From the NCBI GenBank assembly GCA_045594785.1, contig JAZNZE010000059.1, positions 1 through 32,000 on the forward strand: 32,000 bases of DNA. The letters run 5' to 3'. This DNA is from Eubacteriales bacterium (GTDB taxonomy: Bacteria; Bacillota; Clostridia; Oscillospirales; CAG-272). The notes under the pieces were generated by a model. It was not told where the DNA came from, made no database searches, and saw only the letters and a list, made by a program, of their open reading frames with translations. Below, piece after piece: positions 8,011-31,784 of this stretch. A program made the position numbers and the translations under genes. The first letter of the stretch is position 1. Every line of letters starts with the position of its first letter.

Positions 8011-8017
8011 AAATCTT

Positions 8018-9692: not shown

Positions 9693-9727
9693 AAAACAAA
9701 GAATAACCGGAATTTTGGGGGTACAAA

Positions 9728-15378: not shown

Positions 15379-15390
15379 AAGGAGAATATT

Positions 15391-16113
15391 ATGGATAAAC
15401 AATTTCACACACCACACATAAACGCATCTCCCAAAGATTTTGCAAAAACAGTTCTTATGCCGGGAGACCCCTTACGCTCAAAATTTATAGCCGAGAATTT
15501 TCTCGAAAACGCAAAGCTTGTCAATAACGTAAGAGGTATTCAAGGTTACACCGGCTCTTACAAGGGTGAAAGGGTTTCGGTTATGGCGAGCGGAATGGGT
15601 ATGCCGTCCATAGCAATATATTCATACGAGCTTTTCAAGTTTTTCGGTGTTGAAAACATCATCAGAGTTGGCTCTGTCGGCGGTATGGCAGAAAAGGTAA
15701 AAATACGAGACATTATCTTTGGAATGGGCGCATCAACCACCACGAACTTTGCCGTGCAGTACGGTCTTGAGGGCACGCTTGCCCCCTTGGCAAGCTACGA
15801 GCTTTTAAGCACTGCTATCAAGGAAGCAGACAAAATAGGCGCTTCGTATCACGTTGGAAATCTTCTTTCCTCAGATATATTCTATAATGCAAATCCAGAG
15901 GCAAATGAAAAATGGACAAGGCTCGGTGTGCTCGGTGTTGAAATGGAGGCTGCTGCGCTTTATATGAATGCCGCTTATCTATCAAAGCGCGCTCTTGCGA
16001 TTTGTACGGTTTCCGACCATCTCGTTACAGGAGAATCGCTTGATGCTGAGGCAAGGCAAAATTCCTTTACTGAAATGATGGAGATAGCGCTCAATACTGC
16101 TATAAAAATGTAA
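15391..16113 (+). CDS. deoD: Purine-nucleoside phosphorylase, DeoD type
   Basis: TPHINA, VLMPGDPLRSKFIAENFLE, NNVRG, GMGMPS and VEMEAAALY closely parallel E. coli DeoD. Confidence 0.9.
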   Translation: MDKQFHTPHINASPKDFAKTVLMPGDPLRSKFIAENFLENAKLVNNVRGIQGYTGSYKGERVSVMASGMGMPSIAIYSYELFKFFGVENIIRVGSVGGMAEKVKIRDIIFGMGASTTTNFAVQYGLEGTLAPLASYELLSTAIKEADKIGASYHVGNLLSSDIFYNANPEANEKWTRLGVLGVEMEAAALYMNAAYLSKRALAICTVSDHLVTGESLDAEARQNSFTEMMEIALNTAIKM

Positions 16114-16129
16114 ATAAAGGTTGTCAAAT

Positions 16130-17305
16130 ATGAAGAAAATCTTTCTAATTGTGCTTGATTCTCTCGGAATAGGTGCTGCACCTGATGCGCATCTTTTTGG
16201 TGACGAAGGAACCAATACGCTTAAAAGAATTTCGGCCTCAAGCCGATTTCACATTCCTAACCTTATAAAAATGGGAATAGGAAATATAGACGGTGTAAAC
16301 TATATTGAAGGCTCTGAGAGACAGACGGCGGCAACTGCAAGGCTCAGGGAGCTCAGCGCGGGAAAGGATACCACTATCGGTCACTTTGAAATATGCGGAA
16401 TAGTCTCAGCATCGCCTATGCCTACCTATCCTAACGGTTTTCCTGCCGAGATAACCGAGGCATTCGAAGCTGCAGTCGGAAGAGGAATTCTTTGCAACAA
16501 GCCGTATTCGGGAACGGAGGTTATCCGCGATTACGGAGAGGAGCATATCAGAACTGGAAAGCTCATAGTTTACACCTCTGCAGACAGCGTCTTTCAGATT
16601 GCAGCCCACGAGGATACGGTGCCGCCGGAGCTGCTTTACGATTATTGCCGCAAGGCACGAAAAATACTCACCGGAAAGCACGGTGTCGGCAGAGTTATAG
16701 CGCGTCCGTTTATAACCGAAAACGGAGGCTATAAAAGAACGGCAAACAGACGGGATTTTTCTCTTCCTCCGCCAAAGGAAACGCTGCTTGACGCAATCAA
16801 GAAGCGCGGGCTTGACGTTATTGCCATAGGAAAAATAGAAGATATTTTTGCCTCCAGAGGAATCACAGAAGCTTATCATACCAAGTCAAACGCTGAAGGA
16901 ATGGCAATATGCGAAAGCTTTTTAGACAAGAATTTTTCCGGCCTCTGCTTTCTTAACCTCGTTGATTTTGACAGCCAGTTCGGGCACAGACAGGATACAG
17001 ACGGTTATGCCGCCGCGCTTTCCGAATTCGATGCCCGGCTGCCGTCCTTCACGGAAAAAATGGACGAGGACACGGTGCTTATAATTACGGCGGATCACGG
17101 CTGCGACCCCGGTGACGAGGACACCGACCATACGAGAGAATACGTGCCGCTTTTTGTTTACGGAAAGAACGTAAACCCCAAAAACCTCGGTACGCTCTCG
17201 GGATTTGGCACGGTGGCAAAGCTCTGCTCCGACATTTTAAAGCTGAATTTTACTCCCGATGCGTATGAAAATATTAAAAGCAAAATAATCGAAGAGGACA
17301 TCTAA
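16130..17305 (+). CDS. deoB: Phosphopentomutase
   Basis: MKKIFLIVLDSLGIG N-terminus, NLVDFD and ITADHGCDP motifs. I prefer the ATG at 16130 over the track's TTG at 16121. Confidence 0.9.
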   Translation: MKKIFLIVLDSLGIGAAPDAHLFGDEGTNTLKRISASSRFHIPNLIKMGIGNIDGVNYIEGSERQTAATARLRELSAGKDTTIGHFEICGIVSASPMPTYPNGFPAEITEAFEAAVGRGILCNKPYSGTEVIRDYGEEHIRTGKLIVYTSADSVFQIAAHEDTVPPELLYDYCRKARKILTGKHGVGRVIARPFITENGGYKRTANRRDFSLPPPKETLLDAIKKRGLDVIAIGKIEDIFASRGITEAYHTKSNAEGMAICESFLDKNFSGLCFLNLVDFDSQFGHRQDTDGYAAALSEFDARLPSFTEKMDEDTVLIITADHGCDPGDEDTDHTREYVPLFVYGKNVNPKNLGTLSGFGTVAKLCSDILKLNFTPDAYENIKSKIIEEDI

Positions 17306-19341
17306 TGAAGAAAAAATATATCTCGGACTCCTTCCGCCACTTTCTGCACGGCGGAGATTACAATCCCGAGCAATGGATAGATACCAAAGAAATATGGGAT
17401 GAGGATATGCGGCTTATGCAGCTTGCGGGTTGCAACGAAATGAGCGTTGGTATTTTTTCCTGGTCAACGCTTGAGCCAAGAGAAAACGAATACGATTTTT
17501 CCTTTCTTGAGGAAATTCTGGATAAGATTTATGCAGCGGGCGGAAGAGCTTTTCTTGCAACCCCCAGCGGTGCGAGACCGCACTGGATGGCAGATAAGTA
17601 CCCGGAGGTTCTTCGAGTTCGCGCTGACGGACAGCGAAACCGCTTCGGAAGAAGGCATAATCATTGCTACACCTCTCCTTATTACAGACAAAAGACCTAC
17701 GAGATAAACCGCTTACTCTCTGAAAAATTCGGGAATCACCCTGCCGTAATAGGCTGGCATATTTCAAACGAGTTTGGCGGTGAATGCTTCTGCCCTCTTT
17801 GCGCAGAGGCTTTCAGGGAATTTCTTAAGAAAAAATACGAAGGCGACATCAAAAAGCTGAATTTTCAATGGTGGACAACCTTCTGGAGCCATACATATTC
17901 CGATTTTTCCGAAATCGAACCGCCTTCACCGATAGGCGATTCCTTCTCTGCCCTTGAGCTTGACTGGAAAAGGTTCGTTATGGAACAAACAACGAGCTTT
18001 ATGGAAAACGAGGTAAAAGCAGTAAGGGAATATTCAAGCCTTCCGGTAACAACTAATTTTATGGAAGAGTACCCCAGAAACGATTATAACGTTAAGGTTC
18101 GCGCCGTTGATATAGTTTCGTGGGACTCATATCCAAAATGGCATAATTTCGAAAGTGATGACGGACACCTGACCGCAGCCGTAGATACAGCAATGAGGCA
18201 CGACTATTTCAGAGCGCTGAAAAATCAGCCGATAATTCTTATGGAATCCACACCGTCTCACACTAACTGGCAACCGATAAACAAGCTGAAGCGTCCGGGA
18301 ATGCATAAGCTATCCTGTATGCAAGCGGTAGCTCACGGCTGCGATGCCGTTCAGTATTTCCAATGGAGAAAATCCCGCGGCTCGAACGAAAAATTTCACG
18401 GTGCTGTCGTTGACCACGTGGGCCACGAAAACACGAGAGTTTTCAAAGAAGTAAGCGAGGTCGGCGCTACTCTCAAGAAGCTTGACAACGTACTTGGTTC
18501 AATGCCTAAAGTCCGCGTTGCAATTATAATAGACGCAGAGAACGAATACGCCCTTACCTATTGCCAGGGCTTCCAAAATGAAAACAAAAAATATTCAGAT
18601 ACCTGCAGAGAATTTTACTCAACGCTTTGGAGACGGGCAATTGACGTTGACGTTATAAGCGCAGATCGTGACCTTTCCTCCTACGACCTGGTTATTGCAC
18701 CAATGCTTTATATGACACCCGAGAAGGTTATAAATTCACTTGAAGGCTACGTGAAGGGCGGCGGCACGCTGATTGCCACCTACACTCTGGGTATGGTTAA
18801 CGAAAACGACCTTTGCTATCTCGGCGGATTTCCCGCAGGTGCGCTCAGAAAGGTTTTCGGCATATGGAACGAGGAGATAGACACTCTCTATCCGACAGAA
18901 AGAAACACTCTTACCTATAATGGCGAGAGCTATGAAATATGCGATTATGCCGAGAGAATACACCCGGAAGGCGCAAAGGTGCTTGCACGTTACACTTCGG
19001 ATTTTTATCGAGGCGAGCCTTGTGTAATAGTAAACGAATACGGCAAGGGAAAGGCTTATTATATTGCCGCCCGTGATACCGGCGCTCTGAAGGATAAAAT
19101 TATCGGTGACGTTCTTGATACGCTCAGTATCAAAGGAAATATCAAGAGTTCTCCCGAGGGAGTTACGGCGCACTCGCGAGAGGACGAGGAATACAAATAT
19201 CTCTTCGTAGAAAACTACACCGAAAAAGAAGCAACCGCACAGCTCTTCTGCTGCGGTACGGATATGGAAACGGGAGTAGCTACAGATAGCAGCATTACTC
19301 TTTCTCCTTACGGGGTACGCATCATAAGAATAAAGAAATAA
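17305..19341 (+). CDS. GH42-family beta-galactosidase
   Basis: 678 aa. HGGDYNPEQW N-terminus, WHISNE (acid/base Glu context), and a length and layout typical of GH42. The ATG overlaps the deoB stop (TAATG). Confidence 0.9.
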   Translation: MKKKYISDSFRHFLHGGDYNPEQWIDTKEIWDEDMRLMQLAGCNEMSVGIFSWSTLEPRENEYDFSFLEEILDKIYAAGGRAFLATPSGARPHWMADKYPEVLRVRADGQRNRFGRRHNHCYTSPYYRQKTYEINRLLSEKFGNHPAVIGWHISNEFGGECFCPLCAEAFREFLKKKYEGDIKKLNFQWWTTFWSHTYSDFSEIEPPSPIGDSFSALELDWKRFVMEQTTSFMENEVKAVREYSSLPVTTNFMEEYPRNDYNVKVRAVDIVSWDSYPKWHNFESDDGHLTAAVDTAMRHDYFRALKNQPIILMESTPSHTNWQPINKLKRPGMHKLSCMQAVAHGCDAVQYFQWRKSRGSNEKFHGAVVDHVGHENTRVFKEVSEVGATLKKLDNVLGSMPKVRVAIIIDAENEYALTYCQGFQNENKKYSDTCREFYSTLWRRAIDVDVISADRDLSSYDLVIAPMLYMTPEKVINSLEGYVKGGGTLIATYTLGMVNENDLCYLGGFPAGALRKVFGIWNEEIDTLYPTERNTLTYNGESYEICDYAERIHPEGAKVLARYTSDFYRGEPCVIVNEYGKGKAYYIAARDTGALKDKIIGDVLDTLSIKGNIKSSPEGVTAHSREDEEYKYLFVENYTEKEATAQLFCCGTDMETGVATDSSITLSPYGVRIIRIKK

Positions 19342-19400: not shown

Positions 19401-20228
19401 CTATTCGGATTTACAGTATAAATCGGTTTTTTTATACTGCAACGGCGTCATTCCGTAGTTTTTCTTAAAAAGACGAATAAACCTTGAGCAATCGCCAAAG
19501 CCTGCCAAAAAGCAGGCTTCCGTAACAGAACACTCTCCTCTTAAAAGCTTTTCGGCATACGAAAGTCTTTTTGCTCTTATAAGCTCTCCGGGCGAGAGAT
19601 GCAAGTACTCACGAAACCACCTGTTAACCGTAGGAACGCTGACGTGAAACTGCCTTGCTATCAAATTAACCGAATCAATCTCAAGAAATTTATCGTTTAC
19701 GTATTCAAGAATTTTCTGAAGCTTTCCGGGAATGGAAACCTTTTCATCATAAAAAGTATTTTCCTTCATAAGTCTCAGAATTTCCAAAAATCTTAAGGAA
19801 CGCTCAAAAGAATCACCGTTTTTTTGAAATTCCGATAAAAGCGAGAAAAGCTTCTTTTTATTTTCTTCGCTAAGCCTTACGTATCCGTTTATTTTGTGCT
19901 TTTTTATAAAATCCACTACCGTAATATTTTCACCGACCTCAAACCAGAGGCAGTAATGCTCGTGAACGCAAGGAGAATTATATATACAATGGTGCACCTC
20001 TCCCGGCTCTGAAAAAATTACGTCTCCGGATTTTATCATATAAATATTATCGCCGTGCAAAAAAGAAACGTCTCCCGAAAGGTTCACGTATATTTCGTAA
20101 GAGCTGTGTACGTGCGAATCGTCTATAACGGTTTTGCTCGGGTCTACGTAAAAATCCTTATATGAAAGAGTATACCTTATCTCACTCGGAAAGCCTATGG
20201 ATTCAGAAAGCACTGGCTGAAAGCTCAT
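19401..20228 (-). CDS. AraC-family transcriptional regulator (N-terminal cupin, C-terminal HTH)
   Basis: The C-terminus (PTVNRWFREYLHLSPGELIRAKRL, GFGDCSRFIRLFKKNYGMTP) is an AraC-type double HTH. I prefer the ATG at 20228, preceded by AAAGGAGA. The track ORF starts at 20255. Confidence 0.85.
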   Translation of the reverse strand: MSFQPVLSESIGFPSEIRYTLSYKDFYVDPSKTVIDDSHVHSSYEIYVNLSGDVSFLHGDNIYMIKSGDVIFSEPGEVHHCIYNSPCVHEHYCLWFEVGENITVVDFIKKHKINGYVRLSEENKKKLFSLLSEFQKNGDSFERSLRFLEILRLMKENTFYDEKVSIPGKLQKILEYVNDKFLEIDSVNLIARQFHVSVPTVNRWFREYLHLSPGELIRAKRLSYAEKLLRGECSVTEACFLAGFGDCSRFIRLFKKNYGMTPLQYKKTDLYCKSE

Positions 20229-20270
20229 TTTTAATCTCCTTTTTAAAATATGCATTCGAAGCTGTTAATT

Positions 20271-20333: not shown

Positions 20334-20428
20334 TCACTATAGTATAGCACAAATTTAATTTTTTTCAAGTCGCTGTTTTTAATTTGGCCAAAATTTTTCA
20401 TACGGCAAAATGCGGAGGATTTTGCATA

Positions 20429-21340
20429 GTGAACAGTTACGTTATTTTATCGGTTTCAATGCTTTGCGCACTTTTTGCAAACGTTATCAAAAAGCGTTCC
20501 GCGGCAGGCTTTAAATCAAAGAAAATCATGCGTTTCTTTTTTAACGCAGCGGTCACCCTTGCCTGTGCCGCATCGCTTTTTATAATAAGTCTCTTTGACG
20601 GACTAACTAAAATTTCCGGCTTTACTCTGATGCTGGGAATACTTTTCGGAATTATTACCGCTATTCAGTTCTTTTTCGCGCTTTTGTCATATGAAAGCGG
20701 CCCGTTTTCTTACACCTCTGTTATAATATCTCTATCGACTATAATCCCTGCATTATCCGGATATCTGATATGGAATGAATCCATCTCCTTCGTTCAAATA
20801 ATAGGTATGGTTCTGATGCTTCTGTGCTTTTTGCTTTCGGTAGATTTTTCGAAAAGTGACAAAAAGACCTCTGCCGTATGGTTTCTGTACGTTTTCATAG
20901 CCTTTATTGCAACCGGATTTATAGGAGTTATGCAGAAATGGCATCAAAGCTCCGAATATAAAGCGGAGCTTGACGGATTTTTGATAATAGCCTTTTTAAC
21001 CGCGTTCGTTTTTTCGGCTGCAGGAAGCTTTTTCGCACTGCTGAAATCTAAAAAGGAAGGAAAAGAAAAATTTTCAAAGCAAGACGTCTCCCCATCTGCC
21101 CTTGTTCTTATGATTTTATGCGGTATGTGCGCGGCTGCAAACAATAAATTCAATCTTTACCTATCCGGAATAATGGACAGCGCGATATTCTTCCCTGTGG
21201 TAAACGGCGGCGGTATGATACTTTCGGCAATCACCTCACTATTTATGTTCAAAGAAAAATTTACAAGGCAAAAATGGCTAGGCATAGCGATAGGCGTTAT
21301 TGCGGTAATACTTCTTTGCAACCCATTTAAAAACAGCTAA
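20429..21340 (+). CDS. DMT-superfamily (EamA-like) 10-TM permease, substrate unknown
   Basis: Polytopic throughout. I prefer the GTG at 20429, which has GGAGG 10 nt upstream. The track ORF begins at the TTG at 20384. Confidence 0.75.
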   Translation: MNSYVILSVSMLCALFANVIKKRSAAGFKSKKIMRFFFNAAVTLACAASLFIISLFDGLTKISGFTLMLGILFGIITAIQFFFALLSYESGPFSYTSVIISLSTIIPALSGYLIWNESISFVQIIGMVLMLLCFLLSVDFSKSDKKTSAVWFLYVFIAFIATGFIGVMQKWHQSSEYKAELDGFLIIAFLTAFVFSAAGSFFALLKSKKEGKEKFSKQDVSPSALVLMILCGMCAAANNKFNLYLSGIMDSAIFFPVVNGGGMILSAITSLFMFKEKFTRQKWLGIAIGVIAVILLCNPFKNS

Positions 21341-21352: not shown

Positions 21353-24300
21353 ATGAAAAAAACCTTAAAGCTTAAGGACAGCGTCATATCCATAGAAGGA
21401 AAAAGCTTTCTAATCAAAAGCAAAAACGCTATTCTCGGACTTTCTTTTTCGGAGAGCCTCGGCTTTACCGTGGACGCGCTGAAAAACAGCGCAGGAAAAA
21501 GAGAGGTTGACTACATAAAAGAGCCGCAGAGCTTTCTGCCTATCAGCCTTTACGAAGAGACCGAAGCTAACATAGAAAGCAGCCACGAGCTTATGAATGC
21601 GGTTACAAGAAAGGACGGCGAGGGTGTAAAGGCAGAGATTAAAAGCGGAAACTGGACCTTCGTTTCTGCCGATGCTGAAAATTCTTATTACGGCGGCGCT
21701 AAAGTTCTGAAGCTTTCTGCGGTAGCGGAAAACGAAAGCTACAATCTGACCTTTCACGCGATAACCTATCCCGAATGCAACGTTATCAGATATTGGTTTG
21801 ATATAAAAAACCTAAGCAAAAGTGAGACCGAATGTAAGGTTATTCCTGTTGCACTTGAAATCAATTCTGACGACCAGGAGGATATTTACCGGGCCGCCTG
21901 GTTTAATACCGCAAACGCAAGACAGCATTTCGGAAGAATTAACGAAATGGACTTCGGCGTCAGACCTCCGGAAGTGTCAATTTCTTCAAGAATGACCGCA
22001 GAATATATTCCTCTTGTAATTTTCTACCGCGACAGCAAGCCAAACGATGGCATTATGATAGAAATGGATTATATCTCGCATTGGAATATGCATCTTGAAA
22101 AAACGCTTACCGGAATAAACTGCCGTTTTGGTTTTGACGGAAAAGATAATATAAAAATGGCGGCAGGCGAGGTTATTTCTACTCCTATTATCACTATCGC
22201 AACCTATGCCGGTGATATGGACGAGCTGATGGTAACTCTTTACGACTGGCAGTATACTTATATGTGGGATTACACTCTCGGCGACTACTACGCCAAGCTT
22301 CGCAGCCAGAATCTTGATTACCCTTGGGTATATTGCAGCCGCATCCTTAACGAGCAATTCGCATACCGCATAGCAAGTATGAATATGCTCGCTTCAAAAA
22401 CACACTCGGCGGCAGGAATAGATATCGGCTGGGACGATGCGGGCTGGTCCTCATTCCCGGGCTGGCCCGAGGATTCCTATATGTCCGTTTTCAAAAACAC
22501 CTACGAGGGTCCCGACCACAGACTTTCGACAAGATACTACGAGAAGCTCGGAATGAAGCGCCTTATATGGTTTGCCGGCAAGCCCTCTATCGATATTCTT
22601 GAAACGAAACAAGGCGCTTGGGGAGAATTCGAATGGAGAACTGACGAGGTTTATAACACCGATTTCAAATCAGAGGCTGCCTTCAAAAAGCTGATAAAAA
22701 GCTATCTTGACGGAGGAATACACCGCTCCTTCCATACCTGCTCGGGAGGAGCTACATACGCGGGAAATTTTGACATTCAAAGACTTGCCAACTATCACTA
22801 TCTCTCGGATAACGGAATGGGCCCCGTAAGCACATACTATTTCACCTACTTCACCGTCCCTGACAGATGGGGAGACACTCTCCCCGGTCTTGGAGGAGAA
22901 TACTATGCAAAGGACGGCTCGCATTCCTTCAAAATAAAGAACGGGAAAACAAAATACTATAACCCGGACTTTGCCAGAGGTAATCTGATTATGGCAGGAA
23001 AATACTGCCCCGTAGTCTCCAAAAACACAGAGCTTCACAGAGAAGATGCAAATATTTACGACTATCTGAAGTCTAAGGGCGTTGCGGGAAGATGGAGCTA
23101 TATGTTCCACCCGGGAATTTACGGTGACAGAGAATACTATTATATGCAGAGAACCTCCCGTGACCGCCTGCGTGCAGCAATTATCATACGCAGGCGTCCC
23201 GAAGGCAGAGTTGTTATATATCCCAAAGGGCTCATTGAAAACAAAAAATACACAGTCACCTTCGAAATATGTAACGAAATATTTACAAAAACAGGCAAAG
23301 AACTTATGGAAGAAGGCTTTGTCATTAAGAACGTCAAGCCTCGCGAGGTGATATATTTTAATCTTCCCGACAGTCCAAAAAAAGCAAATGGCGTTACTCT
23401 CCCCACGGTAAAACGCGTTATATGCAAGAGGGAAAACAACGTTGGTACAAGCGGTATAGGAATTTATTGGTCGGCTTATGACGGCGCGCTTCAATACTAC
23501 GAAATAGCGCGTGACGGTGTCGTTATAGCCACAAGCGCGAAATTCAGATATTTCTTTGATACCGATGCCGATTTTGAAGGCAATGCTGTTTACTCAGTGC
23601 GTGCTGTGGGCTATGGAGATAAGGCGAGCGAGTGGGTTGAAGGTGAGTATCTTGAAGGAGAAAGCATAGCATATTCGACACTTGGCGCTCACGGAAAAGA
23701 CCTTGCAAAAATGAACTGGAAAGCAGAGATTTCATACGACTTAAAAACCTTTCTTCCTATGAAATGGACACCTGCCGCAGCAAATCCCGGCGCGGACCAG
23801 GGCGGAACGCCAAACCAAGAGGGCGGAATTGAAGGATACTTTGAAGGCGGTCAGTGCGCAAAAATAGGCAGAGGCTGGCAGCAGGCTTCACCGGACGCTT
23901 ACTGCGTTCGCTCCTTTATAGCTCCGTTTGACGGAAAAATCAAGCTTACGGGAAGAGCGGTCAAGGAATGGTATCACTCTGAGTACGGCTCTGACCTTGA
24001 GGCAGGCGTTATGAAAAACGGTGAGGTTATAGTTCCCTTCACCGCGCTCAAGAAATCCGATATTGACGGTCTTTCGTATAACCTGGAGCTTGAAGTCAAA
24101 GAAGGCGATATTCTTCGCTTCGTGCTGGGTAAATGCGACAGCGAGCACAATGCAAGCGTACATTACGAAAAGGACGCTAATATTGTCGGCTGGAACAGCA
24201 TTATAGAATACCCGGTAGAAAAGGACAAACAAAACGACTTCGTTTACAGAATCAACTGCGGCGGAAATGAATTTACCGATGAAATGGGCGCAGTTTGGTC

Positions 24301-25120
24301 TCCCGATGCTTACTTTACCTCGGGCGAGGCTATAGGAAACGACGATGAGCTTTTTGCAAGTGCGAGAAGCGCAGACGCCTTCTCTTATAAAATCCCCGTT
24401 CCCCCGGGGATATACGCAGTTCGTCTTCTCTTCTCCGAAAATGAATACGATAGCGTTAACGAGCGATTTACAGAGATAAGAATCAACGGCTCGCTCCGCG
24501 AAGCCGAGCTGGATATTGCACAGAGTGCGAGAGGTGTCGGAAAGCCCTACGGCAAGGTATACCACTACATTATCCCAAGCGAGACGGGCGAGATAGATAT
24601 TTCACTTACCTCTATCAAGGGCGGTGCACTTCTTTCGGGAATTGAAATAATGAATGAAAAAGATGGCGTTTATCACATCAACTGCGGTGGAGAGGACTTT
24701 GTAGACTGGGCAGGCTACGTCTGGCAGAAGGATAAATTCTTCGATGGCGGCGAAGCTATCAAGGAAGAAAAAATCCCGTTAAAGCAGGCAAGCCCCACTC
24801 TTTACGACAAGGCTCTTTATCATACCGGAAGATGCGGCTCCGATTTCTCATATAAGATTCCGGTGCGTGACGGAATATACTCGGTTCAGCTGAAATTTGC
24901 AGAATTTGAGTTAACTCTTCCCGACACTCGTCCGATGGATATTTACATTAGCGGTGCTAAGCTTAAAGAAAGCTACAGCCCGGTACGCTCGGGCGAGGTC
25001 GCACCTATAAGCGCAGACGTACGCTTTGATGACGTGAGCGCACAGAACGGATATATTGATATCCGAATTAAGTCACTCTCGGATAAGCCGGCAATTCTCC
25101 GCGCAATAGAAATAGACTGA
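21353..25120 (+). CDS. Large multidomain glycoside-hydrolase-like protein (clan GH-D / GH36-like core) with two C-terminal malectin (CBM57-like) domains and no signal peptide
   Basis: 1255 aa. GIDIGWDDAGW and HTCSGGATYAGNFDIQRLANYHYLSDN resemble the GH36 DDGW and CSSGGGR...SDN motifs. Two repeats of the malectin signature: YRINCGGNEFTDEMGAVWSPDAYF...IYAVRLLFSE and YHINCGGEDFVDWAGYVWQKDKFF...IYSVQLKFAE. The N-terminus MKKTLKLKDSVISIEGK is hydrophilic. Confidence 0.8.
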   Translation: MKKTLKLKDSVISIEGKSFLIKSKNAILGLSFSESLGFTVDALKNSAGKREVDYIKEPQSFLPISLYEETEANIESSHELMNAVTRKDGEGVKAEIKSGNWTFVSADAENSYYGGAKVLKLSAVAENESYNLTFHAITYPECNVIRYWFDIKNLSKSETECKVIPVALEINSDDQEDIYRAAWFNTANARQHFGRINEMDFGVRPPEVSISSRMTAEYIPLVIFYRDSKPNDGIMIEMDYISHWNMHLEKTLTGINCRFGFDGKDNIKMAAGEVISTPIITIATYAGDMDELMVTLYDWQYTYMWDYTLGDYYAKLRSQNLDYPWVYCSRILNEQFAYRIASMNMLASKTHSAAGIDIGWDDAGWSSFPGWPEDSYMSVFKNTYEGPDHRLSTRYYEKLGMKRLIWFAGKPSIDILETKQGAWGEFEWRTDEVYNTDFKSEAAFKKLIKSYLDGGIHRSFHTCSGGATYAGNFDIQRLANYHYLSDNGMGPVSTYYFTYFTVPDRWGDTLPGLGGEYYAKDGSHSFKIKNGKTKYYNPDFARGNLIMAGKYCPVVSKNTELHREDANIYDYLKSKGVAGRWSYMFHPGIYGDREYYYMQRTSRDRLRAAIIIRRRPEGRVVIYPKGLIENKKYTVTFEICNEIFTKTGKELMEEGFVIKNVKPREVIYFNLPDSPKKANGVTLPTVKRVICKRENNVGTSGIGIYWSAYDGALQYYEIARDGVVIATSAKFRYFFDTDADFEGNAVYSVRAVGYGDKASEWVEGEYLEGESIAYSTLGAHGKDLAKMNWKAEISYDLKTFLPMKWTPAAANPGADQGGTPNQEGGIEGYFEGGQCAKIGRGWQQASPDAYCVRSFIAPFDGKIKLTGRAVKEWYHSEYGSDLEAGVMKNGEVIVPFTALKKSDIDGLSYNLELEVKEGDILRFVLGKCDSEHNASVHYEKDANIVGWNSIIEYPVEKDKQNDFVYRINCGGNEFTDEMGAVWSPDAYFTSGEAIGNDDELFASARSADAFSYKIPVPPGIYAVRLLFSENEYDSVNERFTEIRINGSLREAELDIAQSARGVGKPYGKVYHYIIPSETGEIDISLTSIKGGALLSGIEIMNEKDGVYHINCGGEDFVDWAGYVWQKDKFFDGGEAIKEEKIPLKQASPTLYDKALYHTGRCGSDFSYKIPVRDGIYSVQLKFAEFELTLPDTRPMDIYISGAKLKESYSPVRSGEVAPISADVRFDDVSAQNGYIDIRIKSLSDKPAILRAIEID

Positions 25121-25130: not shown

Positions 25131-25175
25131 CCCGTTTTCACCCTGCAGCGTCTCGGTGAAAACGGGCTTTTATTT
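25131..25175 (+). terminator. Strong rho-independent terminator
   Basis: CCCGTTTTCACC / GGTGAAAACGGG 12-bp perfect stem, a 12-nt loop, then CTTTTATTT. Confidence 0.8.
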
Positions 25176-25207
25176 AAAAGATAGTATCAACTATTTCTGT
25201 AAAAGTA

Positions 25208-25236
25208 TTGATTTTGAAGAAAAAGAGTGCTAAAAT
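25208..25236 (+). promoter_or_regulatory. Candidate promoter of the PHP-paralog array
   Basis: TTGATT, 17 nt, then an extended -10 TGcTAAAAT. It lies 37 nt upstream of the ATG at 25273. Confidence 0.55.
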
Positions 25237-25272
25237 CGTATTAGATTTTTAATAAGCAGAGAGGTCCAAAAA

Positions 25273-26250
25273 ATGCTTGATAAATGTAACTACGTAAGGC
25301 TTTTCGGCAGCAATCCGAAATTCTTCAAGGTTAATCTAAACTGCCGCACCAACCTATCGGACGGTCAGTATACCCCAAAAGAGATAAAGGAGCTTTACAA
25401 GGCTCACGGATATTCCGCAGTTGCCTTCTCCGACAAAGACAGAATGGTATCTCACGACGAGCTTAACGATAAGGATTTTATCGCGCTTTCTGCCCTTGAA
25501 TTTACCGTTACCGAAGAGAGCGGCAAAAAGGTAAGCCTTAACGCGATAGCTCTCTCTCCTTGTGCAAAAGCTCCCGCTCTTCCAAAAAACGAGCCTATGA
25601 GTGACAAAGAGATAAGAGAGGCTATCAAAGAATTTAAGGATAACGGATTTTTCGTTACCTGCAATCACCCGAGAAAATCACTCGTAAGCTGTGAAAAAGG
25701 CTCTGCCTACGAAGAGGTTGACGCCATAGAGATACTCAACTATTCCTCCCTTGTAAGCGGAATAAACGAGTATAATGAAAATTACTACGAGGATATACTC
25801 AAAAGCGGAATTCTTCCCTACTGCATAGCGGCTGACGGAAACACGAATAATCTTCCCGTTGGCTATCGCGGCTCAGATTCTCTCGGTGCTTACGTCGTTA
25901 TCGTGGCAGACGAGCTTTCATACGAGGCTATTGCAGACGCTCTTAAAAAAGGAAGATTTTATTCCTCCGAGGGCCCCGAAATTTACGACCTTTGGTATCG
26001 CTCCGAGGTTCTTTACATAAGGTGCTCCCCCTGCGACAAGGTTATTTTCGAGAGCGGAACGCGCCGCGAAGTATTCTTTGCCGAAAACGGCAATCTTCTT
26101 GACGGCAAGGGAATGTGCTTCTGGGTTATGCCGGAGCACGAATACGTAAGAGTTACGATAGTCGATAAGAACGGCAAGAAGGCGTTTACCAACGCCTACG
26201 CCTCAAACGATATTTTCTATACCTATGAGAAGGTAGGAGATTTGAAATGA
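25273..26250 (+). CDS. PHP-fold paralog, type A (A1), with metal ligands largely lost (predicted pseudoenzyme)
   Basis: 325 aa. NLNCRT replaces HxH, SDKD replaces DH, ADGNTN replaces DxH, and the motif III His is lost (SLNAIA). The motif III Glu is kept (ALEFT), and NHP, EILNYSS, GSDSLGAY and FYSSEGPEI are retained. Confidence 0.85.
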   Translation: MLDKCNYVRLFGSNPKFFKVNLNCRTNLSDGQYTPKEIKELYKAHGYSAVAFSDKDRMVSHDELNDKDFIALSALEFTVTEESGKKVSLNAIALSPCAKAPALPKNEPMSDKEIREAIKEFKDNGFFVTCNHPRKSLVSCEKGSAYEEVDAIEILNYSSLVSGINEYNENYYEDILKSGILPYCIAADGNTNNLPVGYRGSDSLGAYVVIVADELSYEAIADALKKGRFYSSEGPEIYDLWYRSEVLYIRCSPCDKVIFESGTRREVFFAENGNLLDGKGMCFWVMPEHEYVRVTIVDKNGKKAFTNAYASNDIFYTYEKVGDLK

Positions 26251-27293
26251 GTAAAAGTACGTTTAAAATTCTTCTTCCCAACGGAAAGGGATATAAAGCA
26301 AATCTTCATAATCACTCGCACGTTTCGGACAGCCTTATTACCGCAGAGGAGCTTAAGGGGCTCTATATGGAGCACGGCTATTCGGCTATTGCTTATTCCG
26401 ACCACGACGTTATAATTCCCCACCCCCGTCTTACCGATGAGAGCTTCGTTGCGCTTACCGCGGCAGAGCTTCACGCAAACGCAAGGGTTACCTTCTGCAA
26501 TTTTGCCAAGACCTGCCACTTCAACGTTGTCGCCATTGATAAGGATAATGCCAAAGCGGTTCTCTGGCACAGAAACGATTACGTGCCTCGCTGCTCGATG
26601 CTGTACTACGACAAGGTTGACGTTGACGAGACGCTCCCCGACTACGAAAGAATTTATTCTCCCGAAAAGCTCTCGGAGATGTTCAAAATATGCAGAGATT
26701 CGGGATATTTCGTTATATACAACCACCCGGTTTGGTCGTGTGAGGACTACGGTGAATACTCCGGATATGAAAATATGCACGCCTTCGAGATTATGAACAA
26801 TTCCTCGGTTGTCGGTGGATATGACGAGTTTAACGGAATTATATATGATGAGTTTCTGAGACAGGGAAAGCGTATTTACTGCGTTGCAGGTGATGACAAC
26901 CACAATATGAGACCTCCGAAGGACAGAAAGAGCGATTCCTTCGGCACCTTTACCGTTATAAAGGCAAAGAAGCTTGAATATAACGAGCTTACCGCTGCGC
27001 TTGTAAACGGAGACTGCTACGCAAGCGAAGCTCCTGAAATCGAATGCATCTGGTATGAGGACGGATACGTTCATATAAAAACCTCTCCCTGCAGAAAGAT
27101 ATGTATGAACACGGGTATAGGCAGAGCCGACATTGAGCTTGCCGAAAGCAAGGAAAAGCCTGTAACGGAGGCAACCTTTAAGGTTAACGAAAGTGACGTT
27201 TACGTAAGGTTTTCTCTTACCGATATGAAGGGAAAAAGAGCCTATTCAAGAGGCTATTTTACCGATGAGATGGATTGGGGGAATGAAAAATGA
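26247..27293 (+). CDS. PHP-domain metal-dependent phosphoesterase-like protein, type B (B1), with a full ligand set
   Basis: 348 aa. NLHNHSH (HxH), YSDHD, AAELH, CHFNVVA, YNHP, EIMNNSS (compare YcdX EINNSS) and GDDNHN (DxH). The start overlaps the A1 stop (ATGA). Confidence 0.85.
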   Translation: MSKSTFKILLPNGKGYKANLHNHSHVSDSLITAEELKGLYMEHGYSAIAYSDHDVIIPHPRLTDESFVALTAAELHANARVTFCNFAKTCHFNVVAIDKDNAKAVLWHRNDYVPRCSMLYYDKVDVDETLPDYERIYSPEKLSEMFKICRDSGYFVIYNHPVWSCEDYGEYSGYENMHAFEIMNNSSVVGGYDEFNGIIYDEFLRQGKRIYCVAGDDNHNMRPPKDRKSDSFGTFTVIKAKKLEYNELTAALVNGDCYASEAPEIECIWYEDGYVHIKTSPCRKICMNTGIGRADIELAESKEKPVTEATFKVNESDVYVRFSLTDMKGKRAYSRGYFTDEMDWGNEK

Positions 27294-28228
27294 GTTCCGA
27301 AATAAAGTACCTTTTACCGCACAAAAATTTCTATAAAGCGAACCTGCACGCAAGGTCAAGCCGCTCGGACGGAAGACTTTCTCCCGAAGAGCTTAAAAAT
27401 GCTTACAAAAATAAGGGCTATTCGGTTCTTGCTCTTACAGATAATAAGCCTTCGTGTGAAAAGACGCTTTCCGACAAGGATTTTCTGGTTATGTCCGGCT
27501 TTGCCTTCGGAGCAAAAAGTGAAAATACCGTTCCGATAAAGAATGCTCACTTCACCGCTCTCTCGCTTACCGAAGAGCCCCAAACGCTTCCGGAATTTAA
27601 CGGAGAATACGACCTTAAGAATATCGCATCATATATATCCGAATGCAAAAAGCACGGATATTTTACGACCTACTCGCATCCCGCAAAGTCCTGCCTCGTT
27701 ATGCCCGAGCAGCTCGAGCTTTCAGAGGTTGACGCGCTTGAGGTTATCAACTATTCCTCTCTTATGGAGGGACAGGACGAATATAACGCGGTTTGCTACG
27801 ATAATTTTCTCAGAAGAAATCACAGACTTTTCTGCACTGCAAGCGATGGAAACAGAAACCTTCTCCCACTTGATGATAAGAGGTCGGATTCCTTCGGGGC
27901 ATATACCTATATAAACAGCGACACGCTTGACTACGCATCTATTGCATCTTCCATTAAAAACGGAGAATTCTACGCAAGCGAGGGTCCCGAAATCAAGGGA
28001 CTTTGGATAAAAGGGGACACGGTTAATATAAGAACCTCTCCCGCAGACAGAATTTTTCTCTGCGCCGGAAGAAGAGCCTGCAGAAGCTTCCAGGCAAACG
28101 GCGGTGTTCCGCTTACCGCGGCAGCCTTCCAGCTTCACCCGAAGGATATATACGTGCGCTTTGTGGTAATAGACGAAGAAGGCAGACGCGCATACACAAG
28201 AGCCTATTACCTTGATGAAATGATGTAA
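27290..28228 (+). CDS. PHP-fold paralog, type C (C1), with degenerate metal ligands (predicted pseudoenzyme)
   Basis: 312 aa. NLHARS, TDNK, FAFG (Glu lost) and SDGNRN. YSHP, EVINYSS, RSDSFGAY and FYASEGPEI are retained. The start overlaps the B1 stop (ATGA). Confidence 0.85.
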   Translation: MSSEIKYLLPHKNFYKANLHARSSRSDGRLSPEELKNAYKNKGYSVLALTDNKPSCEKTLSDKDFLVMSGFAFGAKSENTVPIKNAHFTALSLTEEPQTLPEFNGEYDLKNIASYISECKKHGYFTTYSHPAKSCLVMPEQLELSEVDALEVINYSSLMEGQDEYNAVCYDNFLRRNHRLFCTASDGNRNLLPLDDKRSDSFGAYTYINSDTLDYASIASSIKNGEFYASEGPEIKGLWIKGDTVNIRTSPADRIFLCAGRRACRSFQANGGVPLTAAAFQLHPKDIYVRFVVIDEEGRRAYTRAYYLDEMM

Positions 28229-28233
28229 TAATG

Positions 28234-28274
28234 ATACCGATTTTACAAAAAACCAACATATGCAAAGTCGGTAT
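28234..28274 (+). other. Inter-cassette hairpin (attenuator, processing or stability element?)
   Basis: ATACCGATTTT / AAAGTCGGTAT 11-bp stem (one G-U pair) with a 19-nt loop. There is no strong U-tract. The stem core is identical to the hairpin after the second cassette. Confidence 0.45.
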
Positions 28275-28320
28275 TAGTTAATCCATTTTAAGATTTATAG
28301 AAACGATAGAGAGGTAAAAT

Positions 28321-29361
28321 ATGCTTCCACTTTGTAATCATAAAAGACTTTTTCCCAGAGGAGCAAAACAATACAAGGCAAATCTGAATTGCCACACGAA
28401 TATATCGGACGGTGAATACTTCCCCGAGGAAATAAAGGAGCTTTACAAGGCCAAGGGTTATTCTGCAGTTGCCTTCTCAGACAGAGAGGTGCTTATACCA
28501 CACCAAGACCTTAAAGATGACAGCTTTCTTCCACTTACCGCTTGTGAATATGAAATTGAAGGAAGCGAAGGAAAATCTATTCACTTTAATATAATCGCAC
28601 TTGACGAGGATAACGTTACCCAGCCTCTTTGGCATAGAGAAAAATACATATACCCCTACTCCGAGCCATCTCGCAAATTCGTAAAATTTGACGAAACCGA
28701 GCCCGATTACGAGAGAGAATTCACTCACAAAAAGATAAGTGAAATGATGCAGAAGTGCAGAGACAAAGGCTTTTTCGTAACTCTTAATCACCCCACGCGT
28801 TCCCATCTTAGCTATAACGATTTTGCCGCTTTAGAGGGAATGGACGCTTTTGAAATAACGAACTATTCGTCAATGCTTGCAGGATATGAGGAGCATAACG
28901 ACACTATATTCTCTGAAATTCTGGCGACAGGCAAAAGACCTTATTGCGTTGCCGGAGACGAGAACCAAAATAAAAATCCCTTTGGCTCAAGACAGTCGGA
29001 TTCCTTCGGTGCTTACACCGTAATTCTTGCGGACAGCCTCGACTACAAGTCGATAGCAAACGCTCTGAAAAACGGACACTTCTATTCCAGCGAAGGACCG
29101 GTAATACACGACCTCTGGTATCGCAGTGACGTCCTTTACATAAGATGCTCCCCTTGTGACAAAATCATATTTGAAACGGCTAAGGGAAAAACTGTAAAGC
29201 TTGCAGAGGACGGAGTGCCTCTTACCGGAGAGGGAATGTGCTGCTACATCGCTCCCGAGCATCAGTACGTCAGAGTTACCGTAGTTGATAAATATGGGCG
29301 CAAGGCTTATACGAATGCCTACGATGCCGCCGAGATGGTACACACGTACGAGAAGAGGTGA
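28321..29361 (+). CDS. PHP-fold paralog, type A (A2), partly degenerate
   Basis: 346 aa. NLNCHT, SDRE and GDENQN. E (ACEYE), HFNIIA and LNHP are retained. Long identical runs with A1 (KELYKA.GYSAVAFSD, DLWYRS.VLYIRCSPCDK). RBS AGAGAGG. Confidence 0.85.
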   Translation: MLPLCNHKRLFPRGAKQYKANLNCHTNISDGEYFPEEIKELYKAKGYSAVAFSDREVLIPHQDLKDDSFLPLTACEYEIEGSEGKSIHFNIIALDEDNVTQPLWHREKYIYPYSEPSRKFVKFDETEPDYEREFTHKKISEMMQKCRDKGFFVTLNHPTRSHLSYNDFAALEGMDAFEITNYSSMLAGYEEHNDTIFSEILATGKRPYCVAGDENQNKNPFGSRQSDSFGAYTVILADSLDYKSIANALKNGHFYSSEGPVIHDLWYRSDVLYIRCSPCDKIIFETAKGKTVKLAEDGVPLTGEGMCCYIAPEHQYVRVTVVDKYGRKAYTNAYDAAEMVHTYEKR

Positions 29362-29366
29362 GGAAT

Positions 29367-30407
29367 ATGAAAAAGAATTACAAAGACCTATTTCCTGAGA
29401 GCTTAAACTCATATAAAGTAAACTTACATTGTCATTCTGACGTTTCTGACAGCCTCATAAGAACATTTGAGCTTAAGGATATTTATAAAAATTCGGGCGG
29501 TTATGCAGCCGTTGCATACACCGACCACGACCTTGTAGTAAAGCACCCTGAGTTATGCGATGAAGAGTTCGTAGCTCTTACCGGAGTAGAGCTTTACGTT
29601 CATAGCGGTTTTAATTTTGCGGGCTCTGAAAAGTGGTGTCACTTCAATGCGGTTGCAATAGACGAGAACACTGACGTGCAGCTTTTCTGGCATACCGATA
29701 AATATATTCACAAGGTCTGTATGCTATATGCAGACGCGGTGAACATAAATCCAAGCGAGCCTAATTTTGAAAGAGAGTATTGCCCTGAAAACCTCAACCA
29801 GATGTTCAAAAAATGCAAGGATGAGGGATACTTCGTTATCTATAACCACCCCACCGACTCTCACGAAAATTATAATGACTATTCTAAATACGAAAATATC
29901 GATGCGCTTGAAATAATGAACGGAAGCTGCCTCAGACTCAGTGGAGAAGAATATAACGGAAACGTTTACGACGAGCTTCTCAGATGCGGAAAGCGTATAT
30001 GCTGCGTTGGAAGCGACGATAACCACAACTGTAACCCTCCCTTCACAAGAAAAAGCGATTCGATTGTAGCTTATACAGTAGTAAAGGCTGAAAAAATCTC
30101 CTACAAGGATATTATGGGAGCACTCTGCGCCGGGATTGTTTATGCAAGCGAAGGACCTGAAATCTACAGCATCACTTACGAGGACGGATATGCAAAAATA
30201 AAAACCTCTCCCGCAAGAAAAATCTGTCTTAATACCGGCATAGGCAGGGCGGACGCTGTTTTTGAATCGAAAGACGGTACTCCGGTTACCGAAGCTAGCT
30301 TCAAGGTAGAGAAAAGCGATATCTATTTCAGATTTTCAATTACCGACACTACGGGAAAGAGAGCCTATTCAAACGCATACTTTACCGATGAACTCGATTT
30401 TGAATAA
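29367..30407 (+). CDS. PHP-domain metal-dependent phosphoesterase-like protein, type B (B2), with a full ligand set
   Basis: NLHCHS, YTDHD, GVELY, CHFNAVA, YNHP, EIMNGS and SDDNHN. I prefer the ATG at 29367 (SD-like GAGGTG 6 nt upstream). An alternative GTG at 29358 overlaps the A2 stop (GTGA). Confidence 0.85.
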   Translation: MKKNYKDLFPESLNSYKVNLHCHSDVSDSLIRTFELKDIYKNSGGYAAVAYTDHDLVVKHPELCDEEFVALTGVELYVHSGFNFAGSEKWCHFNAVAIDENTDVQLFWHTDKYIHKVCMLYADAVNINPSEPNFEREYCPENLNQMFKKCKDEGYFVIYNHPTDSHENYNDYSKYENIDALEIMNGSCLRLSGEEYNGNVYDELLRCGKRICCVGSDDNHNCNPPFTRKSDSIVAYTVVKAEKISYKDIMGALCAGIVYASEGPEIYSITYEDGYAKIKTSPARKICLNTGIGRADAVFESKDGTPVTEASFKVEKSDIYFRFSITDTTGKRAYSNAYFTDELDFE

Positions 30408-30418
30408 GGAGGCGCACT

Positions 30419-31366
30419 ATGAACTATAATATCAAATATCTGCTCGGTGAGAAAAGCTTTTATAAAGCAAATCTCCATTCAAGGTCCTCCCTCTCTGACG
30501 GCAGACTTTCTCCGCTCGAGCTTAAAGAGCTCTACAAGAAAAACGGCTACTCCGTGCTCGCGATAACCGATAACGAACCTAAGGATTACGCTGAGCTTTG
30601 TGATGATGATTTTACCCTGCTTTCAGGCTTTGACTTCGGCGCAAGAGACAAGGCTGCTGACGGTGTTCCGACAAAATCCTGCACGTTTACGGCAATTTCA
30701 CTTAACAAGTCTCCCGGGAGCGTAGCACCGTTTGATGCTGAATACGGAAGCGATAAGGTAAACGGCTTTATCTCCGCATACAAAGAGAACGGCTATTTCG
30801 TAACCTACGACCACCCTATCCGCTCTCTTGAGGTCGCGCCCGATTTTCTGAAATACAAAAACCTTGACGCTATGGAGATAATAAATTATTCCTCTCTCGT
30901 TGAGGGATATGACGAATACAACTCGTTTACGTATGACCTCTTTTTAAGATATGAGAACAGAATGTTCTGCATTGCGACTGACGGAAACAGAAACGAGAGA
31001 CCTCTAAGCTCCGAAAGAAGCGATTCGCTTGGAGCGTTCACTATGATAGAGGCGGATTCTCTGAAGTACAGTGATATTGCAAAATCTCTCTCGGAAGGCA
31101 GTTTCTATTCAAGTGAGGGACCCGAAATAAAGGCTTTATGGATTAAGGGAGATTCTCTCAACGTGAGATGCTCTCCGGCAGACAGAATTATTCTTTCAGC
31201 AGGAAGAAGAGCCTGCAGAAGCTTTTACGCAAATGAAAGCGAGACTCTCACCGCCGCAACCTTCAAGATATTTCCGCAGGATATTTTCGTAAGAATATCT
31301 GTAATCGATAAGGACGGAAAAAGAGCTTACACCAGAGCTTATTTCGTTGACGAAATAATGAAATAA
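30419..31366 (+). CDS. PHP-fold paralog, type C (C2), with degenerate metal ligands (predicted pseudoenzyme)
   Basis: 315 aa. NLHSRS, TDNE, FDFG, CTFTAIS and TDGNRN. YDHP, EIINYSS, RSDSLGAF and FYSSEGPEI are retained. RBS GGAGG. Confidence 0.85.
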   Translation: MNYNIKYLLGEKSFYKANLHSRSSLSDGRLSPLELKELYKKNGYSVLAITDNEPKDYAELCDDDFTLLSGFDFGARDKAADGVPTKSCTFTAISLNKSPGSVAPFDAEYGSDKVNGFISAYKENGYFVTYDHPIRSLEVAPDFLKYKNLDAMEIINYSSLVEGYDEYNSFTYDLFLRYENRMFCIATDGNRNERPLSSERSDSLGAFTMIEADSLKYSDIAKSLSEGSFYSSEGPEIKALWIKGDSLNVRCSPADRIILSAGRRACRSFYANESETLTAATFKIFPQDIFVRISVIDKDGKRAYTRAYFVDEIMK

Positions 31367-31430: not shown

Positions 31431-31464
31431 TTTTTCATTAAAGATCTAATTTTTATTTAGAGTA

Positions 31465-31493
31465 TTGATTTTGGGAGAAAACTATGGTAAAAT
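31465..31493 (+). promoter_or_regulatory. Candidate promoter of the atp-like operon
   Basis: TTGATT, 17 nt, then an extended -10 TGgTAAAAT. Confidence 0.5.
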
Positions 31494-31526
31494 CTTTATA
31501 AAGTTTTGCAGGAGACGGACTAGGCT

Positions 31527-31784
31527 ATGTATAGAAATTTTGTCGGTGCGCTATACGTGTTGAATATAATCTTTCAAGCCATATTTACACTGCTGACACC
31601 GCCCGCAATTTTCTTTCTTATTAACTATCTCTGCGTATCAAAGCTTTCGTTTCCGAAATGGACTTATGCAATCTCCCTTTCCGTAGGTTTTGTTTTAGGT
31701 ATTATCTCAATGATAAAATTTGCGATAACCGCCTCCGAGGCTCTTGAAAGGCTGGAAAAACAAAGAAAAAACAAAAAGGACTAA
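31527..31784 (+). CDS. AtpZ/AtpI-family small membrane protein (ATP synthase operon leader gene)
   Basis: 85 aa, two TM helices and a basic C-terminal tail, positioned directly upstream of an AtpI-like ORF. The family assignment is from memory. Confidence 0.5.
   Translation: MYRNFVGALYVLNIIFQAIFTLLTPPAIFFLINYLCVSKLSFPKWTYAISLSVGFVLGIISMIKFAITASEALERLEKQRKNKKD

Follow-up and report, generated by a model that had tools for sequence, protein, structure and literature searches.

Tandem triads of PHP-fold paralogs in gut Clostridia, each with one fully liganded and two metal-site-degenerate members

Why would a bacterium keep PHP-fold proteins that have lost metal ligands directly beside a paralog that has all of them? 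The question is raised by positions 1 to 32,000 of contig JAZNZE010000059.1 (assembly GCA_045594785.1, Eubacteriales bacterium, CAG-272), a stretch of 32,000 nucleotides that we call the window. At positions 25273-31366, on the plus strand, lie six paralogous open reading frames (ORFs) in the order A-B-C-A-B-C, alignable over their whole length. An earlier examination of the letters alone (the sequence-only reading) had described them as a duplicated triad in which only the middle gene keeps the catalytic ligands, and all six ORFs are intact as it had delimited them. In every triad that we found, B is fully liganded and A and C carry type-specific losses. We consider it somewhat more likely than not that A and C take no part in catalysis and serve B as partners, most likely within a hetero-oligomer, in a module that descends from a single-copy PHP ancestor.

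The first cassette consists of A1 (25273..26250, 325 residues), B1 (26247..27293, 348 residues) and C1 (27290..28228, 312 residues), and the ATG codons of B1 and C1 overlap the stop codons of A1 and B1, respectively, each as ATGA. After a spacer of 92 nt follow A2 (28321..29361, 346 residues), B2 (29367..30407, 346 residues) and, 11 nt behind B2, C2 (30419..31366, 315 residues). Both ATGA overlaps and the 11-nt gap agree with the sequence-only reading. Its further proposal, that A2 and B2 overlap as GTGA, depends on the alternative GTG at 29358 (giving a B2 of 349 residues) and is probably unreal, because the orthologs of B2 start with MKKNY... or MRKNY... just where a protein begun at ATG 29367 would, and that codon is preceded by a GAGG; ATG 29367 is thus the most likely start. 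Between the cassettes, counterparts share 53% (A1/A2), 54% (B1/B2) and 58% (C1/C2) identity, compared with 34-43% across types.

In the trinuclear site of PHP proteins, as described for No-PDE and 3E38, the HxH motif and a strand-8 Asp bind the alpha metal, two His the beta metal, and a loop Asp, a strand-2 His and a strand-8 His the gamma metal, with a Glu bridging alpha and beta (PMC11656708). In B1 numbering, used throughout, the corresponding columns are H21, H23 and D217 for alpha, H91 and H160 for beta, D28, H53 and H219 for gamma, and E74 for the bridge. Only B1 and B2 retain all nine. Read in the order H21 H23 D28 H53 E74 H91 H160 D217 H219, the ligand string is N R D K E S H G T in A1, N H D R E H H E Q in A2, H R D N A H H G R in C1, the most degenerate paralog, and H R D N D T H G R in C2. 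Ligand retention is about 5/9 for A and about 2/9 for C, with Lys or Arg at several of the former ligand positions. The losses of A1 recur in its orthologs, at 57-90% identity. The A2 type keeps the full beta site (E74, H91 and H160) together with H23, and has a conservative D217E and N21, showing that ligand loss in A is partial. That the complete set is confined to B had been claimed for the window; it is true of 11/11 triads first examined and of every triad added later.

The changes extend beyond the ligands. Positions 206 and 209, three and six residues past the beta-site His, have been assigned to the leaving-group pocket (PMC11656708). Their B1 equivalents are W163 and E166, both present in B1 and conserved in 100% and 98% of single-copy relatives, respectively. 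In A, W163 is replaced by K, M, L, R, I or A and E166 by L, A, V or I, while C carries a basic residue at 163 (K163 in C1, R163 in C2). The Glu at position 271 has been exchanged for R throughout A and for K throughout C, C2 included. Lys and Arg are found at positions 23, 53, 163 and 219 in A and C, and the former ligand and pocket positions hold on average 2.2 such residues in A and 3.1 in C versus 0 in B. In addition, about 20-26 residues after strand 4, a segment with the family-conserved H108, Y112 and R135, are gone from C (which lacks B1 101-126) and from some A1 copies; A1 of the window lacks the equivalents of B1 99-118 and 132-136. The former ligand positions drift in C1 but are fixed in C2, where the string HRDNDTH..GR is constant across more than 13 clusters. 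B itself is divided by cassette, with W163 in every first-cassette or single-triad copy and D163 in every second-cassette copy. At positions 92-100% conserved in single-copy relatives the B clade shows G29S (beside the gamma ligand D28), P33T/A, T157I, F257 to C, S, T, V or N, and R292G, and these changes indicate that B too has altered since the triad arose.

How widespread is this arrangement? A profile search of 5.8 billion proteins recovered separate orthologs of A1, A2, B1, B2, C1 and C2 at 65-99% identity, as well as a large set of relatives of about 340 residues at 45-53% identity. The A-B-C-A-B-C hexad is present at loci L001, L088, L089/L090 and L091 and partly visible at L096/L097 and L100, and a single A-B-C triad is found at L003 (NCBI metagenome-assembled genome (MAG) GCA_054292965.1) and at L092-L095, amounting to about 4 two-triad and 2 one-triad lineages. 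Three short contigs obtained by scanning metagenomes with a C-type profile are all consistent with A-B-C-A-B-C. The gene order is invariant in all loci and the spacing ranges from -4 to +25 nt, except for one spacer of 92 nt; the triad has been inherited, rearranged and duplicated solely as an A-B-C unit.

The wider family looks different. It belongs to MAGs of gut Clostridia, with at least 559 loci in species-representative genomes from a scan with the B-type alignment (43-52% identity among the matches listed) and 531 representatives at 50% identity from an exhaustive search at E<=1e-30. In 78/80 species-representative loci the gene is single-copy. Non-triad copies are fully liganded, namely 84/84 in 82 loci and 137/148 diverse representatives at 50% identity; the remaining 11 are mostly truncated sequences or carry single, often conservative changes (H91D/E), and just two of the 148, P0301 and P0201, are substantially degenerate. 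Two species-representative genomes each have two family copies close together (L022, 1685-3831; L079, 7959-10758), all of them fully liganded, so duplication in the family is not always followed by degeneration. With a profile specific for A and C, 54 A- or C-type clusters at 90% identity were found before the score fell from 425 to 397 bits, and in the exhaustive search both types together were covered by two of the 50%-identity representatives, below which the score dropped from 481 to 353 bits. These counts and sharp score gaps confine the A and C types to one narrow lineage: they are found solely within triads, in a narrow group of uncultured gut Clostridia. Homologs that usually occur singly would have spoken against the triad as a unit. 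For the wider family this is the rule, and it leaves the triad claim intact, because the A and C types exist solely inside triads.

The order of events was read from a bootstrapped neighbour-joining tree of family proteins. A, B and C are each monophyletic with 100% bootstrap support, the clade uniting the three within the family has 79-81%, and A and C are sisters with 95%. Thus, the three clades for which the sequence-only reading proposed to look exist and co-occur as triads in other genomes. Its proposal that degeneration predates the duplication of the cassette likewise stands, given that the A clade and the C clade each include both cassettes at 100% bootstrap. The topology at the level of cassettes is congruent for A, B and C, to the point that the first cassette of L088/L089 groups with the cassette-2 type in all three, which shows that triads were inherited and copied en bloc. 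According to the tree, therefore, an intact ancestor gave rise to B and a proto-A/C, proto-A/C degenerated and split into A and C, and the whole triad was duplicated only afterwards.

Degenerate copies might be nothing more than decaying duplicates, pseudogenes in the making without function, and A1, the fastest-evolving member and one that has lost an internal segment, would suit this idea. We rejected it as barely credible on the strength of the substitution rates and the intactness of all copies. A and C are intact in every locus, across lineages whose synonymous divergence is saturated. For the pair L088/L089, in which synonymous sites are unsaturated (dS about 0.45), the ratio of nonsynonymous to synonymous substitution rates (dN/dS) is 0.034 for A, 0.039 for B and 0.062 for C; in other pairs, with synonymous sites mostly saturated, it stays below 0.2, in the same range as for the neighbouring genes for GH42, DeoB and a malectin-domain protein. 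Moreover, 88 non-ligand columns show conservation of at least 90% among single-copy relatives, and of these 64 are retained in A, 64 in B and 58 in C. A and C were also duplicated together with B, and the predicted structure of C1 is of high confidence. Intact frames, low dN/dS and conserved columns together show that A and C are functional proteins and not decaying genes, and the earlier remark that the degenerate copies have stayed intact can be restated as purifying selection on both, of a strength equal to that on B.

Assignment of the six proteins to the PHP fold relies on structure comparison, because searches of the PDB by sequence or profile gave spurious or marginal matches: the B1 sequence had a spurious His-tag match only, and the family profile a single marginal one, to the RNase AM PHP protein 9ETK (E 9e-4). 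The AlphaFold2 model of B1, built with 56 homologs, has a mean predicted local distance difference test score (pLDDT) of 95.9 and a predicted TM-score (pTM) of 0.93, and that of C1 a pLDDT of 94.4 and a pTM of 0.91, with the secondary-structure elements in the same order as in B1. For both models, 10/10 best Foldseek matches are PHP proteins (3E38, 2ANU, RNase AM) at probability 1.00. The matches of B1 comprise 3E38 (BVU_3505), 2ANU (TM0559) and RNase AM (7UG9, 9ETK) and, lower down, 3E0F, the PHP domain of Pol III alpha and 2YB1; YcdX is not among its best 50. Over the whole length 3E38 is the top match (E 2e-11 for B1 and 1e-8 for C1), at an identity of about 15% and a TM-score of about 0.42-0.47. 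The predicted secondary structure of B1 includes an all-beta C-terminal domain from about residue 265.

Sequence profiles add to this in part. The Pfam check suggested for the fold (PHP, PF02811) left the window ORFs below threshold (scores of 17-18.7 bits, gathering score 26.4; B2 without a match), whereas 49/56 family members match at E<=0.01, the best with E 1.2e-9. Judged from the models and from the matches in the wider family, the assignment of all six proteins to the PHP fold, as originally proposed, can be called secure. The best-scoring curated model for all six is NCBIfam NF038032 (E 1.7e-18 to 1.5e-5), which describes the CehA/McbA group, likewise a PHP-type metallohydrolase family. 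CehA and McbA both hydrolyse carbaryl. With 24.6-67.1 bits, the six ORFs all remain under the 80-bit cut-off and are therefore not members of that family.

The two substantially degenerate copies outside the triads provide a comparison from within the family. P0301 (locus L101; ligand string NHDKESH..GR) lies 36 nt upstream of a fully liganded paralog, and P0201 (locus L104; HHDTEHH..GY) lies 15 nt upstream of another, both in other gut bacteria. We tried each as a distant ortholog of A and rejected this, as they group with the A, C or ABC clades in 0-1/100 bootstraps. Given that both fall outside the triad clades, a degenerate gene directly upstream of an intact one arose at least 3 times in the subfamily. 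The L101 copy has in addition converged on replacements of the A1 type (H21N, H53K, H91S, D217G and H219R). The L101 pair (8001-10019) is flanked by an Fe-alcohol dehydrogenase gene and by GH32-PfkB-HAD genes, and the L104 pair (2991-4973) follows an MFS transporter gene. Two fusions were also seen: P0231 (674 residues) joins two complete, fully liganded family modules, with S at position 163 in one and W in the other, and in P0210 (869 residues) a family module is linked with the catalytic domain of a GH123 enzyme (PF13320, E 6e-98); either fusion might stem from an assembly or gene-calling artefact.

Several known systems help to interpret A and C. The closest parallel for a degenerate PHP site is the variant PHP domain of proteobacterial Pol III alpha (E. 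coli DnaE), which combines the PHP fold and a conserved scaffold with an incomplete nine-ligand set and positive side chains in place of metal (PMC3666897). In metal-free PHP domains of this kind Arg is the commonest replacement of a ligand, the scaffold is kept and the role is structural or in docking; the variant domain docks a separate catalytic partner, the epsilon exonuclease (PMC3666897). A and C show the same combination of incomplete ligands, Arg or Lys and conserved scaffold, and the C1 scaffold is predicted to be intact. However, in Pol III alpha the PHP is a domain within a polymerase and its partner an unrelated exonuclease, whereas here we have stand-alone proteins of 312-349 residues, and two distinct degenerate types beside a fully liganded paralog of the same subfamily.

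For B1, the relevant comparison is with BVU_3505 (3E38) and the phosphodiesterases Sb-PDE and No-PDE, which have a PHP barrel with a C-terminal beta domain and a trinuclear site, an architecture that B1 probably shares, and the H-x-x-W-x-x-(Q/E) pocket motif of No-PDE and 3E38 aligns with H160, W163 and E166 of B1 (PMC11656708). They differ in that 3E38, like the other close structural match 2ANU, has no known function and No-PDE is a xenobiotic diesterase of Sphingomonads (PMC11656708), and none of 3E38, Sb-PDE and No-PDE has been reported with degenerate paralogs. As regards oligomers, E. coli YcdX is a stand-alone PHP protein with a nine-ligand trinuclear zinc site and a homotrimer in solution, demonstrating that the PHP fold is capable of three-subunit assemblies (PMC2709924, citing Teplyakov et al. 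2003). Its subunits, however, are identical and active, and YcdX lacks a C-terminal beta domain and represents a distant subfamily.

Heteromers of an enzyme with its pseudoenzyme paralog, as proposed here, are known from other folds; in these the dead paralog is under selection as the obligatory partner of the active one. Trypanosomatid S-adenosylmethionine decarboxylase (AdoMetDC) with its prozyme, and Pseudomonas PyrB with the inactive dihydroorotase (DHOase)-like PyrC', are cases in point. The RNase III pairs of the trypanosome editosome, with one competent subunit only (PMC9508840), and plant PDX1.2 (PMC6829848) are further examples. A and C have likewise lost catalytic residues under purifying selection. 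The known cases are mostly eukaryotic and usually have one dead partner, whereas the association proposed here would join each active enzyme to two different dead or semi-dead paralogs encoded with it in one bacterial operon.

The history we favour would then run as follows. The ancestor was probably a single-copy, cytoplasmic two-domain PHP phosphoesterase with a trinuclear site, consisting of a PHP barrel and a C-terminal beta-sandwich in an architecture like that of BVU_3505/3E38. A and C go back to one early duplicate and have lost gamma and alpha ligands, C most of the beta site too. B is presumed to be the catalytic member of the triad, because it still has the whole metal site together with the pocket of the ancestor. 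A and C would no longer perform the ancestral reaction, and a hetero-oligomer would have replaced an ancestral homo-oligomer; the cationic, metal-free pockets of A and C could stabilise the scaffold or bind an anionic substrate. The cassettes may subsequently have diverged in specificity, as hinted by W163D in the putative leaving-group pocket of B2 and by the AraC/EamA/malectin genes with which cassette 2 travels.

What points to a heteromer is the combination of short or coupled junctions, fixed gene order, en-bloc duplication, congruent trees, the recurrence of degenerate genes next to intact ones and the joining of two family modules in P0231, along with the precedents of the YcdX homotrimer and the variant PHP domain of Pol III alpha. 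A fuller version is quite possible, though somewhat less likely than not: an obligate hetero-oligomer, plausibly a heterotrimer, with B catalytic and Lys/Arg anion pockets in A and C, of a kind with at least three origins, in which the two cassettes are specificity isoforms and one of them is linked to a malectin glycosidase.

A number of observations count against such an interpretation. Co-transcription and tight spacing are equally expected of sequential enzymes in one pathway, and the YcdX trimer is only a distant PHP relative of this subfamily. A1 evolves 2-3x faster than B1 (dN 0.23-0.33 versus 0.085-0.13). The former ligand sites of C1 drift, and some copies may accordingly be under relaxed constraint. 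The A2 type could hold a binuclear alpha/beta centre, with Arg or Lys replacing the gamma metal, and A might thereby retain some chemistry; the original description of A and C as pseudoenzymes is accordingly not secure for A. P0231 might owe its fused form to an artefact of gene calling. For the association of the malectin cassette with a second triad there are only about 4 lineages to set against 2. Finally, the genomic context is ambiguous about the substrate, with nucleoside catabolism encoded on one side and glycosidases on the other; in view of the deo genes nearby, nucleotides or the phosphates of deoxyribose or ribose would be suitable substrates as well.

Two further explanations accept that A and C are functional. 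In one, A, B and C make up a pathway and not a complex: they would be separate proteins acting on related substrates, A (especially of the A2 type) as an altered hydrolase and C as a metal-independent enzyme or binder, and their fixed order and coupling would reflect co-regulation only. The A2 type does retain H23, E74, H91 and H160 along with the conservative N21 and E217, and the fixation of the C2 string in more than 13 clusters is what one would see for a functional site; B, for its part, has clade-specific changes (G29S, P33T/A, F257x) at positions invariant in single-copy relatives. We nevertheless regard a pathway as unlikely. W163 and E166, 98-100% conserved in the family, are replaced in A by variable residues, contrary to what a conserved catalytic pocket would require, in A1-type copies additional ligands are gone (S91, G217), C1 shows free drift at its old ligand sites, and C and the short A1 copies delete the post-strand-4 segment with H108, Y112 and R135. 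Convergence of the L101 copy on the same Lys/Arg filling also fits preservation of a scaffold better than new chemistry. In the other explanation A and C are regulators or decoys that bind substrate, product or, transiently, B, and that sequester, deliver, inhibit or activate, with no fixed stoichiometric complex. The Lys/Arg content of the former metal pocket (2.2 in A and 3.1 in C against 0 in B), the charge reversal at E271 (R throughout A, K throughout C) and the strong selection on both types would all agree with such a role. Nothing in the data separates a regulator or decoy from a stable heteromer; translational coupling via ATGA fits equimolar production better, and we judge this role to be quite improbable.

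For the proposed partnership of B with A and C, the substrate is probably a phosphorylated sugar, a glycan or a nucleoside-derived sugar phosphate. A link to carbohydrates is suggested by the GH123 fusion, by neighbouring genes for GH42, GH32-PfkB-HAD and AraC regulators, and by the cassette with the malectin, possibly GH36-like, protein. Across the family, neighbours include GH42, GH32-PfkB-HAD, AraC regulators and a sugar-phosphate-isomerase-like protein. Among single-copy relatives no strong operon partner was found, the commonest neighbour being an AraC-type regulator (11/82 loci).

To our knowledge, stand-alone PHP phosphoesterases are regarded as homomeric or monomeric. Literature searches on PHP pseudoenzymes or inactive paralogs, 3E38 and TM0559 yielded no description of a stand-alone PHP paralog triad or of a degenerate PHP partner, consistent with the sequence-only reading, which knew of no PHP system so organised. 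One active PHP protein with two different metal-site-degenerate paralogs in a conserved operon would thus be the first found for this fold and, if true, a rare and clean bacterial partnership of enzyme and pseudoenzymes. Its value lies partly in replication, as the arrangement is repeated within a genome (two cassettes), across lineages and, at L101 and L104, by independent origin. It opens the question of how a metal site becomes a pocket of cationic side chains without loss of the scaffold, already raised for the PHP domain of Pol III alpha, and that of whether duplication of a homo-oligomer entrenches dead subunits. For a large PHP subfamily of gut Clostridia without assigned function (the 531 representatives), it provides a carbohydrate-linked hypothesis.

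In all triad loci the PHP block lies between a tdk-deoC-PNP-deoB-GH42 string and the ATP-synthase operon. In the window this string (14126-19341; also at L001, L003, L088, L089 and L092) comprises genes for tdk, deoC, purine-nucleoside phosphorylase (PNP), deoB (phosphopentomutase) and a GH42 beta-galactosidase. The first PHP gene follows GH42 at a distance of 11-19 nt in L003, L088, L089 and L092-L095, suggesting that the ancestral triad was probably the tail of a tdk-deoC-PNP-deoB-GH42 operon. In the window an AraC-family regulator (19401-20255, minus strand), an EamA transporter (20384-21340, plus strand) and a cytoplasmic-looking protein of 1255 residues with two C-terminal malectin domains (21353-25120, plus strand) stand between GH42 and A1. 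This AraC/EamA/malectin cassette accompanies the second triad in every locus that has one, on either side of the PHP block, and is missing where there is a single triad. No family was assigned to the N-terminal ~950 residues of the malectin protein; a sub-threshold Glyco_hydro_36C match at ~620-660 (18.8 versus 27 bits) and a 'GWDDAGW' motif were noted, a hint that its core may be a GH36-like glycosidase.

The terminator after the malectin-protein gene and the hairpins after C1 and C2 were identified by eye and by pattern search; a scan for consensus promoters and terminators gave counts not above those for shuffled sequence. The malectin-protein gene is followed on the plus strand by an intrinsic-terminator hairpin (25131..25175) with a 12-bp stem, CCCGTTTTCACC/GGTGAAAACGGG, and a T-run, and ahead of A1 lies a promoter-like site (25208..25236, plus strand) with TTGATT, 17 nt and a TG-extended TAAAAT. 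A hairpin ATACCGA...TCGGTAT occupies 28234..28274 (plus strand) in the 92-nt spacer between C1 and A2, with no T-run. A hairpin with identical arms follows C2 (31373..31425, plus strand) and is succeeded by a T-run, making it the likely terminator of the PHP block; identity of the arms after C1 and C2 indicates that the duplication of the triad included its 3' flank.

The promoter-like site ahead of A1 is part of a 47-nt element (25204-25250) that recurs with 72% identity at 31461-31507, ahead of the small ORF with which the ATP-synthase operon begins. Where the malectin cassette stands behind the PHP block, the malectin gene comes immediately before the atp genes. This adjacency and the 47-nt repeat suggest that the cassette moved with a copy of the promoter region, which would now drive the hexad of the window. 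The small ORF just before the atp operon (31527-31784) encodes a predicted membrane protein of 85 residues, and a counterpart of 85-88 residues is found in most loci with a downstream flank (L003, L088, L091 and L092-L096), with a weak LapA_dom match in L092.

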